From Flectonema sp. DT1601 (taxonomy: Eukaryota): a stretch of DNA of 64,000 nucleotides. A program made the translations under genes and the position numbers. Positions 33,601 through 44,082 of the stretch are shown piece by piece. The notes beneath the pieces were generated by a model. That model did not search any database, was not told the DNA's origin, and saw nothing but the letters and a program-made list of their open reading frames with translations. Position 1 is the stretch's first letter. Every line of letters begins with the position of its first letter. The DNA lies in the NCBI GenBank assembly GCA_964019425.1, contig OZ025792.1:806001-870000 (forward strand), read 5' to 3'.

Positions 33601-35937
33601 TTAGAGATTCTTCCTCTTGTTGGGAATTCTTTTGTTCTTCTTCTTCTTTGCGTTCTTCTTCTTTTTTCTGTCGTTTCTCCTTTTGTTTCTTCTCCTGTTT
33701 CTGCGGCGTCTTCTTCTCTGTCTGCGTCTTCTTCTTCTTCTATTTTTATCTCCGCAGTCTCCATCACCGCTGTCCTCATCGTCAGTAAGTGGAGGTGCTG
33801 TAACTGGAGGGTCTAATGGAGTGCAGCATTCAGCTACCTGCCCATCATTACATTCGCATAAACCGTCTTCATTACATGTTCCCATACCACCACAAGTGAT
33901 ATCAGCATCACAGTAAACCAAACAAGATTGTGAATCATCATCACTCTGATCATCAAGTATTGGATACCAATTACTTCTACACAAATCACACTCACCAGTT
34001 ACTTCATCAACTGCCATATTCGGATCAGAACAATAACAACTCTCATCGTAAAGTGAGTCAGCATCTTGGAAGACGAGTGTCAAGTACGTCGGGCAGTCAG
34101 TCATTGCGAAGGTGACACCAGAATATAGACATGCTTCTGCGATACATTGCGGGTAAGCATCCTGGCAGGCTATTCCAAATTCACAGCAACTCTGAGCGTA
34201 CTGAATTCGAATTGGATTTCCTTCGCAGACCAAAAGGGCGTCAGCAAAAGTAAGAAATCCGGGTGCTGATTGTTGCGGCTGAGGGCGTCTTTCCAATTCG
34301 AAGAAGGACGGGACGCAAGCCGAAACCTGTGTGAACCGATCAGATTTACAATGCGTATCTTCATAAGGAGATGGGTCGATCCATGTTTCACCAGTTGTTG
34401 ATAATCCCGTTTGTGAAAAGTCTGCATCAAAAACAAGTCCTGCTGGTTGCAATTCAGGACCAACGTACTCAAATAATAAATCCATATGGAAGGTTGGGTA
34501 CTGTGCATCGCTTGCGGTAATTTCCATAAATAACACGGCAATTCCATCGTTATTAAGCACCTCTCCGATAACTCTTCTGGGTTCTGACTCACTGTGTGTG
34601 AGTGAGAAGTAGTTTGATCCCCAAGATGAGTATTTTGGATTCAAATACGGATCCGTATCGAAAGTAATTTCATGAGCATAGCAGTCCGCAACTATCCAAG
34701 GAAGTGAAGTATCACCGAATTCAGATTTCGTTGGAGCAGATATGAATTCTATTAAATTAGCCACACCACCAAATACTTTTGTCACTACTGCGACATGTTT
34801 AATACAAGTACTTTGAAAGTAACACTCACCGTATGTCGCAGTTATCTTAACGAATTCATCAACATAAAGAATATAAGTTGTATTACTCAACCCATTAAAT
34901 AATAATGGACCTCTTGAATACGGTCCTAAGACGTGACCAACTCCCCACCATAGTGATTCTTGTCCACAATGAGGTCCCTTATATCTAGCGTACATAGTAC
35001 AGGTAATCTGATTAACTCCGTTAGCATCTTGGTACTGACCAGGACAACGTGCATATAAGTCAGTTCCAATTTCTTTATCAGCTGGACATTCACATCTATT
35101 CTGAATGCTATCCCAGGTCCCGTTAACACATTTCAACTCCGAAACGAATTCAAACTCTTCAACATATCGAAGCGGAGTTAGGTCAGGATTATTTTTGTAC
35201 ACACACCCGAGAGTAACATTAAAGTTATTGTCAACTGTTGGAACAGAGCACATTGCACAAGCCACTTCGGTTGTTAAATTCCAAATGATGTTCTTAAAAG
35301 TATTGTCATGAGATCCAGGACTCGTATACATCCAGCAACCTTCTTTCTTACAATACATGTCACGAACACCACCTTCACCTTCGATACCTGACCACCTAAA
35401 TAATTGATCTTTACTGAAGCTCTGCATTCCCCAAGATTCCTTCGACCATCCCGACTCGTAAATTGATTCGTTGTTTTGGGCACCGCTTGTAGAAGGATGC
35501 TCACCTCCATTAGCAGAACAAGCAGCTAACATGAGAGGACTATCTCTTATTGCTATTGACACCTGTTCATTCCAAATAATAGAACCAGACTCATGATCAG
35601 CTCTTAAGAGATTGTGGTACTCTAAAATAGTTTCCGACTGCCACTGTGAAGGTGTGATGAAGCAGCCTCCTCCTGTAGTTGTGTCGCAGGCTGTTTTAGG
35701 ACTCGGATCCGTATCTGGACTGGTGGGTACTCCGTGAGCGAATTCACAGCAATCAAAACATGCCGCTAACGGAAATGTGTCAGCGCACCCAAACTCAGCA
35801 CATCCAAACCCATTTGGTTTGCAGATATCTTCCCCTCCACTCCCACATCGTTCAATATTGTGACTCGGCCTCGTACATGGCGCTGAGGCTCCAGCCAGTG
35901 GCACCAGCAGTGCTGTGATACCAAACAGCAGCAACAT
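33601..35937 (-). CDS. Secreted cysteine-rich protein: CAP/SCP domain, EGF-like and possible VWD-like region, polybasic tail
   Basis: Signal peptide MLLLFGITALLVPLAGA; ILEYHNLLRADH..IIWN and FKNIIWNLTTEVACA (CAP); CGGMGTCNEDGLCEC (EGF); Arg/Lys tail. Confidence 0.75.
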   Translation of the reverse strand: MLLLFGITALLVPLAGASAPCTRPSHNIERCGSGGEDICKPNGFGCAEFGCADTFPLAACFDCCEFAHGVPTSPDTDPSPKTACDTTTGGGCFITPSQWQSETILEYHNLLRADHESGSIIWNEQVSIAIRDSPLMLAACSANGGEHPSTSGAQNNESIYESGWSKESWGMQSFSKDQLFRWSGIEGEGGVRDMYCKKEGCWMYTSPGSHDNTFKNIIWNLTTEVACAMCSVPTVDNNFNVTLGCVYKNNPDLTPLRYVEEFEFVSELKCVNGTWDSIQNRCECPADKEIGTDLYARCPGQYQDANGVNQITCTMYARYKGPHCGQESLWWGVGHVLGPYSRGPLLFNGLSNTTYILYVDEFVKITATYGECYFQSTCIKHVAVVTKVFGGVANLIEFISAPTKSEFGDTSLPWIVADCYAHEITFDTDPYLNPKYSSWGSNYFSLTHSESEPRRVIGEVLNNDGIAVLFMEITASDAQYPTFHMDLLFEYVGPELQPAGLVFDADFSQTGLSTTGETWIDPSPYEDTHCKSDRFTQVSACVPSFFELERRPQPQQSAPGFLTFADALLVCEGNPIRIQYAQSCCEFGIACQDAYPQCIAEACLYSGVTFAMTDCPTYLTLVFQDADSLYDESCYCSDPNMAVDEVTGECDLCRSNWYPILDDQSDDDSQSCLVYCDADITCGGMGTCNEDGLCECNDGQVAECCTPLDPPVTAPPLTDDEDSGDGDCGDKNRRRRRRRQRRRRRRNRRRNKRRNDRKKKKNAKKKKNKRIPNKRKNL

Positions 35938-36238
35938 AAAACTATTTCTTTTTGACAAACCGTTGGTGTTAAACTGCGGGATGGGATGAGAAGTAAATAA
36001 AGTAATAAAACAGAACAGAGAGAAGTACTCCACCGTGAGGTAACCCAACACGACATTTAATTAATTATTTTGTAAGTCTGCAGAACAAGTTCATAACTCG
36101 CACTTGACAATCTCATCAGAGGTGAGCTTAAAAAGTGTAAATGGTTAAATACTACCCACCCGATAAGTAACTTATTCAAATTAAATATAAGCAAACCGAT
36201 GCCTAACGTACTCTTCACTCTAATCGGAGTGACGAGTC

Positions 36239-38590: not shown

Positions 38591-41439
38591 TCAATTCTTA
38601 TCATCAACATCTTCTCCTCTCATCTTTGCTAACTCTTCTTTGGTCTTCGCTGGCCATACGGAGGCGTAACCTTCTGTACCGAACTGAGTCTGTTTTTAGT
38701 TGGAAGGTAGAGATCAGAATAGAGAGTCCTTGGAAGGTAAAAAAAAGTAAACTACACACCTGCTCCAGAATCCAAGGCTCTCTATCACCCATAACAGCTG
38801 GTGGGAGTTCACGTGACAGATCATAGGAAGGGTCGATAAACGGCTGCCTTGGAGATCCATTAACTGAGCACCAAATATCTGCGTAGATCTTTATCGCTTT
38901 TGAGTGGTCGATAATATCTTCTGTTCTGTCGGAAACATCAATTCTGTTTTAGTTATTGTTGTCTTCCTCATGAGGATTGAATTTCATATAAAAAAAAAGA
39001 AAGAAAAAGACCAACAGGCTCAACAATAATAATACAAAAAGACAACACAATAAAAGGAAAAGGTCAAGAAGTATAAAGAGGTTACTAATTGCTATCTACA
39101 TACCCGTCAATTTGCCTGACGGTCTTGGTCCAGTTTTCATAAAACTTTCTAAGTTTCCATGACAGTTGTCTGACGTATGTTGCGATAGTTGGAAGCTTCT
39201 TCAGTTGATGAGTATTCAGAGAGATAGGTCCGTTATAACCTGTTTCACTGATAGTGACGTTGTGATGTAATCCAATACCATCCGCGATAGTCATTAGAAC
39301 ACCAGAGCAGTTCTTATGCCTCGACATCATATGCCAACTAAACTTTCTTCCGTGTTCAGTCCAAGCAACTTGTTGATTTGTTCTAAAGTGGTAGTACACT
39401 GAACGGAGTGGGAGGAGGCATTCAATTATTGCTACAAAGATAAATATCAAACAGACAAAGACTCTGAATAATGGAGAATGTTTCTTACTAACTTTTGGTT
39501 GTGGAACACGAATAGTTCCATAAGGCTGAGTGTACCAAGTGCTGTGAAGATAGTGTTGGTAAACTTCATCAGTGAAGGCAGGTACGTTCGGATATACTTT
39601 TGCTCCGGTCCATCTGGCGAGTTTACGGGACCAAATCTCAAAGATTTCGAGTTTCTTAGGAAACGTGTCGGGTGTTAAAGTTAGCCTCTGCGCCCAGTCA
39701 GCTGATGATCTGATGAATCTTCTTGTCTCAAAAGTATCAACTAGAAGTGGAATAGATCCAAGCATCATCCAAGGAAACACTCCAATATTAAACATTATCA
39801 TATTGGATAAATTAAAGAAAATGAATCCGAAAAGGGCAAACATTCTCAGGGGACTGTAAGCGAAGTACAGAGGACCAACCATATCAAAAACCAAACCACC
39901 CCATCCGAGGAAGAAGACGCACAGCTCAGCAACAATCCACGGGACTTCTCCATCAAAACCTGCTCTCATGACATGTCCACTGACCCAGTCGTTGTTAAGT
40001 TTTGCGACAAATCCGTAAAAAAATACGAACAATATAAACGCCCTAAATATAAAATGGTGGAAATACGAAAACGTCTGTATCTCATTCACGTTTTCTTGCG
40101 GTTTTTCTTTACTTTTTTTAGTGAAGATTCCCTTAAGGAACTTCACAGGATCGAACTTTAGGCATCTATCAGTTCTGGCGATTAAGAATAGGAATCCAAG
40201 AGTCAGAATTAAATAATAATGATTATTATAGTGAGTAGCTTCAGAGAAGAAGTGCCAGGCAAAGGTTGGGATGAATAGCAAGCAGCTAAGACGGTATGGC
40301 CAACCAATCATGATACCGAATGAAGCAAGTCCCATTAAGTAGTAAACATAGTAGCAGTAAGGTTCACCAAGATCAGGTCCTAACCATTCCATGTAGTCGT
40401 ATTTAAATCTCATGCCAGACCAGCCGTGGTCTCTATAAACTCTTCCTTCATAGACAGCTTTGAATGCATAATCAATCATTAAGTATCCAAATAGAATTCT
40501 AAATATCGCTAACGGAAGGGGATCAGTTCTTAGGAACATCCATTCCTGAATTGAGAGATTACTTCCCCATCTAAATGGTAATGAACAAAGTGGGAAAAAC
40601 CAAGACGAAGCAGCACTCGGTTCGAAGTCAATCCAACCTGATTGAGAATGAACTGAGAACCCAAATGATCGTTGAATCCCAAAATTAACTTCTTTCATTT
40701 CTCTTTCAGCGCAGCCTTTCTTAATGTCTTGCTGCAACTCATAAGATCCGAGCGTGTCAATTAAAATAGGAAGCTCAGATTCCTTCTTCTGTTCGGCTTC
40801 AATCATCTGAACGACGTTATTAATTCCTTCTAATTCACAGCTGATGTCAGCTCCGGAAATCTTTTTCGCGGCTATCTCAAGATCCTTAAACATTCCATGT
40901 TTTCCAGATAAGATAATTTTAACAAAAGGAGGTCTCTTCTGATCCTTCACAGTTGGAAGCACTTCCAAGAGATTTGAAACGAAGGTCAGCTCCTCCTCGC
41001 TGTGAACGAACCAAAATATCTTCGCTCTCTTCATCTTTGAAGGTGCTTCCCATCGAAGCATTGCTATCAGAGGAATCTGAGCAAGTTGAGAAACACCGCA
41101 ATTCAAAATGAAGTATGGCGTTACTTGTTCACCACGACCAAGTACAGACCCACCATAACACTGAACATGAACTTCAAGTTTCAGACCAACGTTGAGGTGC
41201 TCCTTATTGATTCTCGTGAATTTTCTGACGTCGGAAAAGAAAATGGCGGCTTTCTCCCCGACGGTAGACAAAATTGAAAACCCGTCGAAGGAGACTTCCG
41301 TCCCTTCTCTTCTCAACATAACGTATATTCCCGGAATAGAAGCTTTCGGGATTCCATCGAAGAATAAAACGACGCCATTATCGAGTTTCTTTGCGTCTGT
41401 TGCTGTCCAAATACAAGTTTCTGTCTTTTTTTCCGTCAT
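38591..41439 (-). CDS. Vitamin K-dependent gamma-carboxylase-like (HTTM) protein with N-terminal FNR-like domain, copy 2; exons 41439-39104, 38943-38760, 38689-38591
   Basis: LAIFRILFGYLM, YNNHYYL, AKLNNDW, FNIGVFPWMML, WTEHGRKFSWHMM; spliced C-terminal exon IYADIWCSVNGSPRQPFIDPSYDL matches the GGCX IYFDIWVSIN..QRIFDP region. Confidence 0.88.
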
Positions 41440-41722
41440 ATTTGTAAGATCTGCTTTGGAGGGCAAGAAGTTAAAGCCTGCCTTCTCTTTGTGCGCAAAT
41501 GCTGAGAAGATGGTGTAAATGGTCAGGAAAGCCGTCCGAACACGTGCTGCGGATAATTATCAGAGCTCGTGGTGTGGAGGAGATGCCGGGGGAAAATAAG
41601 GGGGAAAAAAAAAATAAGGGAAGAAAGCAGAAGAATACAAAAAAAAAAAAAAAATAAGGAAAATCATTGAGCCTTGGTCAAACAATAAATATTGAATAAT
41701 AATAAAAAACACTGACACATAC

Positions 41723-44082
41723 TGCGCCAAGACGTTTCCGCTCATCTTCTGCTCGAGATGCTTTCTTATCTTCCAGCAGTATTGTCTAACGTATGTCGGT
41801 ACAAGGCAAAGCTTCTTAACTTGATGAGAGCTCAGTACTACCGGAGCCTTATACAGTTCTGGGTTCCTGGAATCAGGGATCGAATAATTAATCATCAGCT
41901 CATTATCAACCATGACGGTAATGTTTCCATCACATAACTTGTGTCGAGACATCATATGCCAACTAAACTTTCTTCCATGCTCTGTCCAAGCAACTTGTTG
42001 ATTACTACCGTGATGGTAATAGTGTGAACGGAATGGGTACACACATTCAATAACAATTACAATGAAAAGGAATAGAACGGATGCGAATCTAAAAACTGCT
42101 GGTTTTGAAGACTTTAAGACTGGCTGCTCAACTCTTAAAGTTCCTCCTGGCTGACTGTACCAAGTGCTGTGAAGGAAGTTTTGATAAATCTGATCTCTGT
42201 GTGGAGGAACAATCACTCGAATCCTTTCAACCCAACGAACTACACGAGAACGAACTCCACGTTCAAGAGATTGAAATGATTTTGGAAGAACACATTTAGA
42301 GCGACAAACGTTTTCAATTCTGTCGCAGTTCCAACGAATAAACTCACGAGGTTGATGTGTATCAACAAGAATTGGAATACAGCCAAGCATCATCCAAGGA
42401 AACACACCAATTGTAAACATAATCATGTTACACATATTAAAGAACATGAATCCCAACAATGAGAATGTTCTTAACGGGCTGTAACATAAATACAAAGGTC
42501 CAACCATATCAAAAACAAGACCACCCCAAGTGAGGAAGAAAACCAACAACTCAGATGCTACCCAGGGCAGTCCTTCGTCATCAAAACCCGCACGCATTGC
42601 GTGTCCGCTGCACCAATCGTTGTTAAGCTTTGCGAAGAATCCATAGAAGAAGACGAACAAGACAAACCCTCTAAAAACAAAGTGAGAATAGTACGACATC
42701 CTCGGGACTTCATTAACATTCTCTTCAGGTTTTATCTTCTCACCATTAGCGTCTACTTTCGGCTTCAAATAATTCTTCAAAATTCGAATCGGATCAAACT
42801 TAAGACAGGCATCAGCCCTCGTAATTAAAAAGAAGATCCCAAGACAAGTAATCAAATAATAATGATTATTGTAATGCGTAGCTTCAACAAAGAAATGCCA
42901 TGCGAAAGTAATTGAAAAAACTAAACTGCTAAGACGATATGGCCAACCAAGACCAATTCCAATGGAAGCTAACCCCATGACGTAATAAACATAGTAGCAG
43001 TAAGGGTCTCCCAGATCAGGTCCTAGCCATTCCATGTAGTCGTATTTAAATCTCATGTCTGTTTCAACGTAGGATCTCTGGGCTTTGCCTTCGGTTATTG
43101 TTTTCAAGGCATAGTCGAACATTAAATATCCAAATAGGATTCTGAATATAGCTAACGGAAGGGGATCTGTCTGTAGAAACATCCATTCCTGAACTGGTAA
43201 GTTATTACCCCACTTGAAAGGAGTAAAATTTAAAGGAAACAACCACGAGGTAGCTGACTGGTTCTGAAAATCAATCCAAGAAGAACGATTTAACTCCGGG
43301 AATCCGAATGACGCTTGAACTCCAAAAGTCACATTTTCAACGTCTTTAAAATTCTTCTTCAGATCCTCATGTAGTTCATGTGTTCCAATAGTCTCCAATA
43401 CAATCTTCTTGTCTTTTTCTTTTGTGATGAAATCCTTGAGGATAGGAACAGCTTTATTAATACCTTCCGCTTCACACACTACTTCAACTCCAGGAAGCTT
43501 TTTAGCCGTTGCTTGCAATTCTGTGAAGTCACCATGTTTACCAGAGAGAATGATTTGAACTTCAACGGCTCTCTTCTGTTTGGAAGATTTCTGTCTGTCA
43601 AGTACGGCAGCCACCAGTTCAATCTCTTCAGAAGAATGAACAAACCAAAATATTTTTGGTATTTTCATTTCTGCAGGTACATCCCAGCGCATGATGGACG
43701 CTAATGGTATCAAGGCGAGAGGAGTAACTCCGCAATTCAAAACAAAACAAACTTTACTCTCCGCAGAGCGTGAGATCGGAGAAGCACCTCCAGGTTTCTT
43801 CATCACTTCAAACTTCGGACTCTCACTCAGAAGGTAGTCTCTGTGTGTAATTGTGAATCGACGTCGGGATGAAAAGTAAACCACAACATCCTCTCCAACA
43901 GTATTCGCCATTGAGAATGCATCAAAATCAACGGAGCTTCCATCTTTTCTGATTTTAATGAACGCACCGGGGAATTTGTTACTTGCCTTTCCATCAAAAT
44001 GAACCAAAATACCACTCGGCAGAACCTCCTGCTTCACTGCTGTCCAGGTGGTATAAGGATTCTCTTCCGGCTCAGATGACAT
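41723..44082 (-). CDS. Vitamin K-dependent gamma-carboxylase-like (HTTM) protein with N-terminal FNR-like domain, copy 1; large first exon lacking its own C-terminal exons
   Basis: Paralogous to copy 2 throughout; ends at a phase-2 GTATGT donor (41722) at the homologous position. Read-through to 41560 is low-complexity intron-like sequence. Confidence 0.85.

Follow-up and report, generated by a model that had tools for sequence, protein, structure and literature searches.

A predicted reductase-fold domain fused to a GGCX-like membrane enzyme across diplonemids

A 64,000-nt stretch of the diplonemid Flectonema sp. DT1601 (OZ025792.1 of assembly GCA_964019425.1, positions 806,001-870,000; this whole stretch is called the window, and all positions below refer to it) encodes on its minus strand a membrane protein in which a domain of predicted reductase fold is joined to an enzyme part resembling the gamma-glutamyl carboxylase GGCX. 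Two frames, which start at ATG 44082 (copy A) and ATG 41439 (copy B) and are 53-54% identical to each other, each encode about 260 N-terminal residues (here the N-domain), followed in the same frame by a Pfam HTTM domain (E 1e-44 and 3e-42) and part of VKGC_lumenal_dom. The first-pass annotation, which placed a module of about 270 residues ahead of a carboxylase in both copies, described this architecture correctly. The fusion is real and conserved across diplonemids and, as a lineage-wide combination of a reductase fold with HTTM, apparently undescribed. Our preferred reading, to which we give a probability of about one half, is that the locus produces, in two isoforms, a membrane protein found across diplonemids and composed of a likely active, quinol-dependent GGCX-like enzyme and a degenerate domain of the NOX-type fold, the latter likely serving regulation or docking.

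Distribution and fold of the N-domain

The enzyme part matched 16 proteins, 13 of them diplonemid-type and three short and prokaryote-type. The named sources were Flectonema neradi, Rhynchopus humris, R. euleeides, Diplonema papillatum (DIPPA_22027), Lacrimia lanifica, Namystynia karyoxenos and, under the prefix Hpha, what we take to be Hemistasia phaeocysticola. The N-domain was present in 12 of the 13 diplonemid-type proteins, the thirteenth being a partial open reading frame (ORF) whose cluster mate has the domain. Several of the fusion proteins are 'complete' Trinity transcript ORFs from other diplonemids, thus in these relatives both domains are on one mRNA. The first-pass annotation had assumed a single mRNA and had suggested looking for the same architecture in euglenozoans; both expectations were borne out, the latter in diplonemids. 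Independent duplications of the fusion gene were seen in Lacrimia (P0012, P0014, P0021, P0022) and Namystynia (P0007, P0019), and the Lacrimia isoforms combine N- and C-terminal variants, which may be paralogues, alternative exons or assembly chimeras.

Sequence searches, which would miss very distant relatives, found no stand-alone or non-diplonemid N-domain: there were six matches among 1.84 billion representatives, none of them outside diplonemids, and a single match, likewise not an outside relative, among 7997 scored candidates of 133-592 amino acids. Matches in 101 bacterial genomes were at chance level and confined to three of them, and patterns taken from the diplonemid alignment, when scanned against prokaryote genomes and against viral and metagenome contigs, revealed no relative. 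In a FastTree tree the diplonemid sequences formed a separate, long-branched clade; this tree, built from diplonemid and bacterial HTTM proteins with no animal sequence, identified no donor.

The fold of the N-domain was recognized by structure rather than by sequence. Only one of 12 members matched Pfam, at E 0.04 (for copy A a weak NAD_binding_6 hit was seen at E 0.049), an NCBIfam scan gave no useful match, a profile search of the PDB returned summed TAL-repeat artefacts only, and the full protein had no usable match in the ESM Atlas. The AlphaFold2 model of the domain, based on a 15-row alignment, had a pLDDT of 89.6 and a pTM of 0.87, and with it Foldseek found 271 PDB chains at E<=0.001, the best being DUOX1 (E 5.4e-12, TM 0.67), then NOX5, SpNOX and bacterial FNRs, at 11-17% identity. 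Structural re-alignment gave Z 17.5 for DUOX1 (root-mean-square deviation 4.8, 246 residues aligned) and Z 16.8 for the NOX5 dehydrogenase (DH) domain (3.0, 214 residues). The first 16 rows of this ranking were NOX/DUOX entries (Z 15.2-17.5), the best FNR reaching Z 14.3. Profile-profile alignment (hhalign) with 41 FNR/NOX control domains, cut from fetched genomes and restricted to lengths of 180-330 residues, gave probabilities of 96-97.5%, and ESM Atlas features placed the copy A domain, at a borderline 0.90, with FNR-type clusters. These models and profiles confirm the prediction that the N-domain has the fold of the FNR structural superfamily, a FAD-binding beta-barrel followed by an alpha/beta NAD(P)-binding domain, so the assignment made in the first-pass annotation withstood the test set for it. 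The structural comparison leans towards NOX-type domains, while the profiles are nearly equal for NOX-type and other FNRs (87.4% vs 86.6%). Identity of the protein as an NADPH oxidase was rejected, its membrane part being HTTM by Pfam and matching GGCX structures, and not a haem-binding ferric-reductase domain.

Motif state of the N-domain and character of the enzyme part

If the N-domain were an ordinary reductase, it should carry the nucleotide-binding motifs of its fold. We compared 12 diplonemid sequences, numbered as in copy B, with the 41 controls, which included the cyanobacterial EF-hand NOX5-like genes L085 and L086 (one of these adjoins a gene for a double-globin protein). The NAD(P)H loop GxG[IVFLA]xP was found in 39 of the 41 controls and in none of the 12 diplonemid domains, all of which have a three-residue insertion in the loop and Ala, Thr or Ser instead of its last Gly. 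In the CG(P) motif the column equivalent to Cys (230) was Leu, Ile, Phe or Met in 12/12, the Gly was kept in eight and the Pro in none. Both are NAD(P)H motifs described as universally conserved in DH domains (PMC11031084). The FAD motif, RxY(S/T) or HPF(T/S), never started with Arg or His, and 11 of the 12 sequences had Asp, Glu or Gln there. An Arg at, or next to, the Gly of the GxxS/T motif, where the phosphate-binding helix starts, was present in 11/12. Looser patterns matched four to five of the 12 sequences; as the aligned columns lack the motifs, these matches lie elsewhere in the domain. Nine of 265 alignment columns were invariant, and identity between F. neradi and six proteins of other genera was 22-33% in the N-domain as opposed to 52-64% in HTTM, a divergence about twice the HTTM rate. 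In D. papillatum (P0006) a deletion of about 13 residues within residues 40-75 removes the conserved Arg and leaves the FAD motif unrecognisable, an erosion of the barrel that would fit a degenerate flavin site.

The motif strings quoted in the first-pass annotation mix up the two copies: FILNCGVSQLA belongs to copy B and FVLNCGVTPLA to copy A. ETIGTHEL, taken there for the terminal strand, is the strand of the CGP motif, and the domain ends at ..SFG, around residue 260.

The complete absence of GxGxxP and of the CG cysteine favours a degenerate module, in which the normal transfer of hydride to flavin by NAD(P)H has probably been lost. Of the two roles the earlier annotation had offered for the fused domain, degenerate regulator or quinol-regenerating enzyme, the former is thus favoured, and we rate a degenerate regulatory domain, at even odds, as likelier than an active reductase.

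Several observations weigh against degeneracy. The flavin-ring contacts are mostly kept (F54 in 10/12, S/T55 in 10/12, F259 in 11/12), and a W-x-x-H-x-x-E-E motif (W143, H146, E149, E150) is invariant. In the FNR-type fold the latter four residues are presumably placed at the adenine/2'-phosphate end of the nucleotide, and they could form a rewired, functioning nucleotide site. The kept Phe, Ser/Thr and C-terminal Phe correspond to the residues between which the flavin ring of SpNOX is reported to lie (PMC11031084); judged by position and model ranges, Phe259 would be the equivalent of SpNOX F397. The isolated SpNOX DH is reported to be a flavin reductase which recognises the ring only (PMC11031084), and FAD contacts are also contributed by the membrane domains of SpNOX (PMC11031084) and DUOX1 (bioRxiv 10.1101/2020.09.23.309245). 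Because a NOX-type DH holds FAD mainly by the ring, eroded phosphate motifs are no proof of flavin loss, and the motif mapping itself is based on 13-18% identity.

It is therefore possible, if less probable, that the N-domain functions as a flavin-dependent quinone reductase, its nucleotide site having been rewired, and that it supplies quinol at the cytosolic face to its own carboxylase and so covers half of the vitamin K cycle, not the epoxide step. Besides the kept ring contacts and the SpNOX precedent, this explanation could account for the maintenance of the fusion in every diplonemid lineage found, and giant viruses are reported to have VKOR beside GGCX-like genes (bioRxiv 10.64898/2026.03.26.714578). 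It has to cope with the change of both NAD(P)H motifs in all 12 sequences, with the fast divergence of the domain, and with the bacterial relatives of the enzyme: no FNR-family gene was detected at E<1e-5 in the 2368 ORFs that surround 80 bacterial HTTM loci. Within this sample the fusion is thus apparently not operon-derived, and the scan of nearest neighbours (139/149 ORFs) gave no FNR/NOX or NDH-2 gene either. A 264-residue stretch upstream of HTTM in locus L080 was rejected as an N-domain, since it is an open stretch before the probable start and has no match to the N-domain profile.

Even an active N-domain would not make the protein a self-contained vitamin K cycle, as had been proposed. 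GGCX converts the quinol to the epoxide, and the return path consists of two reductions, by VKOR and by a vitamin K reductase (PMC9929328). An FNR-type flavoprotein could cover at most the quinone-to-quinol step, and as the epoxide step needs VKOR, the proposal was overstated and is unlikely to hold.

For the full-length F. neradi protein the model (pLDDT 78.3, pTM 0.74) had its closest matches among GGCX structures (E 1e-19), followed by FNR/NOX domains; the pTM may hint at a defined arrangement of the domains, which, with a linker of pLDDT <50, we do not count as evidence. NNHYYL and AKLNNDW are present as previously noted, and the Lys of the latter aligns with human Lys218. With human numbering transferred from HMMER alignments, the equivalents of N159, H160, K218, W223, D263, N290, F299 and M401, whose roles are described in PMC12647623 and PMC13187478, are found in 13 of 13 diplonemid sequences. 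The enzyme part is therefore likely to be active and quinol-dependent, a prediction from conserved residues.

Three other positions differ. Lys217 is replaced by Ala or Ser in 13/13 diplonemid proteins, and also in all 77 bacterial homologues (chosen by motif, ORFs outside 420-640 amino acids being excluded); the K217A mutant of human GGCX is reported to lose substrate binding and to keep catalysis (bioRxiv 10.1101/2025.02.09.637231). His287 is Asn in 13/13, as in 6/77 of the bacterial proteins, and Tyr395, mapped through the weak but ungapped segment W390-W399, is Arg in 13/13; both residues matter in the human enzyme (PMC12647623, PMC13187478). Residues 798-826 of the F. neradi protein P0003 align, in a weak segment, with human 464-492. 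As the chain has just 48 residues beyond this point, the Arch domain and the greater part of the propeptide-binding domain (405-604) appear to be absent, the luminal region seemingly stopping near human residue 540. The luminal motif is of the bacterial type. Given the residue changes and the short luminal region, we regard the enzyme as a bacterial-type quinol-dependent carboxylase or epoxidase, not an animal GGCX. The protein has no hydrophobic N-terminal leader and its glycosylation sequons are concentrated in the C-terminal domain, as would be expected if the topology is that of GGCX and the N-domain faces the cytosol.

Of the two outcomes mentioned in the first-pass annotation, Gla-type modification or another quinone-dependent reaction, the first is weakened by the Tyr395-to-Arg and His287-to-Asn changes and by the short luminal region. 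Gla modification as in animals, with secreted proteins recognised through their propeptides, would agree with the conserved core and the GGCX fold, and P0008 was automatically labelled K10106/GGCX by its source. Against it stand the loss of the substrate-binding Lys217 in 13/13, the bacterial-type luminal motif and the apparent lack of most of the propeptide-binding and Arch domains. Because the enzyme is of bacterial type, has Arg for Tyr395 and Asn for His287, and seems to lack most of the propeptide-binding region, such modification is doubtful, and in its animal form very improbable in this protist.

A somewhat better case, still rather unlikely in our view, can be made for the membrane domain being an epoxidase only, or another quinol- and O2-dependent enzyme acting for example on lipids or small molecules, with the N-domain as an accessory. 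The Tyr395-to-Arg and His287-to-Asn changes in 13/13 and the luminal region that seems to end near human residue 540 point in this direction, and viral GGCX-like proteins have been proposed to be epoxidases fused to desaturases (bioRxiv 10.64898/2026.03.26.714578). However, region 374-418, which is missing from the viral proteins, is present and strongly conserved in diplonemids, as are N159, H160 and F299; the Arg at position 395 could hold a substrate carboxylate, and the bacterial MloH is reported to carboxylate aspartate (PMC12647623, bioRxiv 10.64898/2026.08.19.745780).

On our preferred reading, an active GGCX-like enzyme with a degenerate N-domain, the protein would reside in the membrane of the endoplasmic reticulum with the N-domain in the cytosol and the C-terminal domain in the lumen. 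A base of the Lys218 type would deprotonate a naphthoquinol, which would react with O2, and as the outcome a substrate other than a propeptide-bearing Gla protein would be carboxylated or undergo related base chemistry. The quinol would come from separate enzymes, e.g. a VKOR; VKOR sequences have been reported from euglenozoans and trypanosomatids (PMC4555120, PMC6832408). The N-domain may still bind flavin or a nucleotide and couple the activity, location or turnover of the enzyme to the cytosolic state. It counts against this model that the activity, cofactor, substrate and VKOR partner of the diplonemid protein are all predictions.

Exon layout and surroundings of the locus

The first-pass annotation spoke of two paralogues, and copies A and B are probably alternative first exons instead. 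Copy A has no exons 2 and 3 of its own. The end of VKGC_lumenal_dom is encoded once in the window (Pfam, 38943-38760), and tblastn found the shared end only once. Exon 1A (41723..44082, 2360 nt) and exon 1B (39104..41439, 2336 nt) both end in phase 2 at equivalent GTATGT donors, and either could be joined to the common exons 2 and 3 without a shift of frame. In F. neradi P0003 and P0009 are isoforms of one Trinity gene, 55% identical across the first 780 residues and fully identical in the last 94, and in the tree each form, A or B, groups with its counterpart from the other Flectonema species. Based on the single copy of exons 2-3, the in-phase donors and the identical tail of the F. neradi isoforms, the locus is likely to be a single gene whose 2.3-kb first exon has been duplicated, the two versions being used in a mutually exclusive way. 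It weakens this assignment that the isoform A splice (41723 to 38943) derives from the genome layout and the F. neradi transcripts, not from RNA of Flectonema sp. Alternatively, copy A might be a separate or truncated tandem duplicate, the common tail in F. neradi being a Trinity chimera, paralogue joining being known as a possible Trinity artefact, or a second exon 2-3 might have collapsed in the window assembly. The genome layout in one species and the transcript tails in another agree independently, exon 1A is intact, 75.7% identical to its orthologue and in phase at its donor, and the A/B orthologues pair in the tree; we find this alternative improbable.

Under the one-gene reading, exon 1A codes for the N-domain (43303..44082, residues 1-260, assigned by model, Foldseek and structural re-alignment), HTTM (42364..43173, residues 304-573, with the Lys218 equivalent K485 at 42628-42630) and the first part of the luminal domain. 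Its spliced product has 880 residues and is 75.7% identical to P0009 (886 residues). The putative isoform A intron (38944..41722, 2779 nt), deduced from frame, donor, acceptor and the common P0003/P0009 suffix, encloses all of exon 1B. Exon 1B contains a N-domain (40660..41439, residues 1-260) 41% identical to that of copy A and an HTTM domain (39739..40530, residues 304-567, K480 at 40000-40002), and through a 160-nt GT..AG intron (38944..39103) it gives a product of 872 residues, 80.3% identical to P0003 (874 residues). Shared exon 2 (38760..38943) encodes the last strands of the luminal domain (Pfam VKGC_lumenal_dom E 4e-7; single tblastn match), and exon 3 (38591..38689), preceded by a 70-nt intron, runs to the stop codon; 82 of the 93 residues of this tail are identical in F. 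neradi. All these features are on the minus strand, as is the spacer between exons 1A and 1B (41440..41716), where long T-rich tracts are followed by AG sites. The spacer is a candidate spliced-leader acceptor region for isoform B, and the choice between the first exons might be made by competition between cis- and trans-splicing. Diplonemids use spliced-leader trans-splicing, and about 5% of multi-exon genes in the group are alternatively spliced (PMC10161547); the exon layout would be a rare conserved case in a group with little alternative splicing.

A bolder scheme, which we hold tentatively and consider unlikely, unites these elements on one chain: a flavin domain descended from NOX, its nucleotide site rebuilt, would reduce quinone in the membrane on behalf of a vitamin K-dependent carboxylase of bacterial type, the product being an undescribed luminal modification and the variants being switched by the 2.3-kb first exons.

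In the region 11755-62434 all frames of at least 200 amino acids except two are on the minus strand, similarly to a unidirectional euglenozoan gene cluster. The neighbouring genes (PPR, GAF, MIF4G, C1-lipase, mitochondrial carrier, Rag GTPase, adenylate kinase) have no vitamin K link. An 819-residue minus-strand frame at 33601-36060 has a signal-like start, a weak CAP domain (E 0.064), cysteine-rich EGF-like repeats and a strongly basic Arg/Lys tail.

Comparison with known systems

The first-pass annotation knew of no reductase-carboxylase fusion, and our literature search agrees with it as far as it goes: the top full-text matches dealt neither with a GGCX-like protein of diplonemids nor with a fusion of FNR and HTTM, subscription papers being mostly outside its scope, and motif terms gave no match. 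The main text of the D. papillatum genome paper, in the part available, does not contain the words 'vitamin', 'carboxylase' or 'quinone'; its supplementary annotation tables may list the gene (PMC10161547). A related published architecture is HTTM-DCC1 with DUF5819 (bioRxiv 10.64898/2026.08.19.745780). The role of GGCX-like proteins outside animals is largely open, and the diplonemid family, from one of the most abundant groups of marine protists, provides a eukaryotic example in a culturable species (D. papillatum DIPPA_22027). An active N-domain would provide the enzyme with quinol from within the same protein, which would bear on how vitamin K recycling works enzymatically; were it inactive, a quinol-dependent enzyme would be under the control of a conserved pseudo-reductase.

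The surroundings of the bacterial HTTM genes are varied. Imelysin (PF09375) genes adjoin HTTM in L055, L056, L060, L061, L071 and L076, which form one well-supported clade, and L056 has a TonB-dependent receptor in addition; one bacterial HTTM subfamily may thus be connected with iron uptake. In three Planctomycetaceae loci (L002, L035, L068) the HTTM genes are in tandem pairs, and in L021, L037, L046, L070 and L079 the HTTM ORFs are longer, 716-803 amino acids. Fatty acid hydroxylase, desaturase or tocopherol-cyclase-like genes lie beside HTTM in some Bacteroidota (L007:6543-7451, L010:6514-7353, L033:3510-4676 and L019:6501-7457). These neighbours may echo the viral desaturase link, or be due to chance.

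With human GGCX (PDB 9WFC, 9L21, 9BVK; PMC12647623, PMC13187478) the diplonemid protein shares the HTTM membrane fold and the first luminal subdomain, and it keeps Lys218, Trp223, Asp263, Asn159, His160, Asn290, Phe299 and Met401. It differs in the added 260-residue FNR-fold N-domain, in the K217A, H287N and Y395R replacements, in a far shorter luminal region and in an overall identity of about 20%. The bacterial HTTM/VKGC-like proteins (PF05090 + PF22777), represented by MloH of malonomycin synthesis, are closer in having the AK-x4-W and WTE.G..[FY].WHM motifs and an enzyme part of similar length; P0015 scored 117 bits, compared with 68 bits for human GGCX, in different searches. The proteins of the 80 bacterial loci have no N-terminal FNR-fold domain, and their 287 and 395 positions are mostly His.

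The N-domain has in common with the DH domains of NOX/DUOX and SpNOX (PDB 7D3F, 5O0X, 8QQ5) the FAD barrel and NAD(P) domain, the order of motifs and the flavin-stacking Phe. In contrast to these, it is N-terminal to the membrane part, where the NOX DH is C-terminal, its partner is HTTM instead of a haem ferric-reductase domain, and its NAD(P)H motifs are rebuilt, at 13-18% identity. FSP1, a vitamin K reductase (PMC9929328), is a functional model for the possible quinone reductase activity, as it reduces quinone with NAD(P)H and flavin, but it has an NDH-2 type fold and is a separate protein. The giant-virus VKOR and GGCX-like epoxidase-desaturase (bioRxiv 10.64898/2026.03.26.714578) are another non-animal example of a GGCX-like protein fused to, or encoded beside, redox enzymes; there the GGCX-like protein is truncated (without 374-418), the fusion partner is a desaturase, and the reductase is a separate VKOR.

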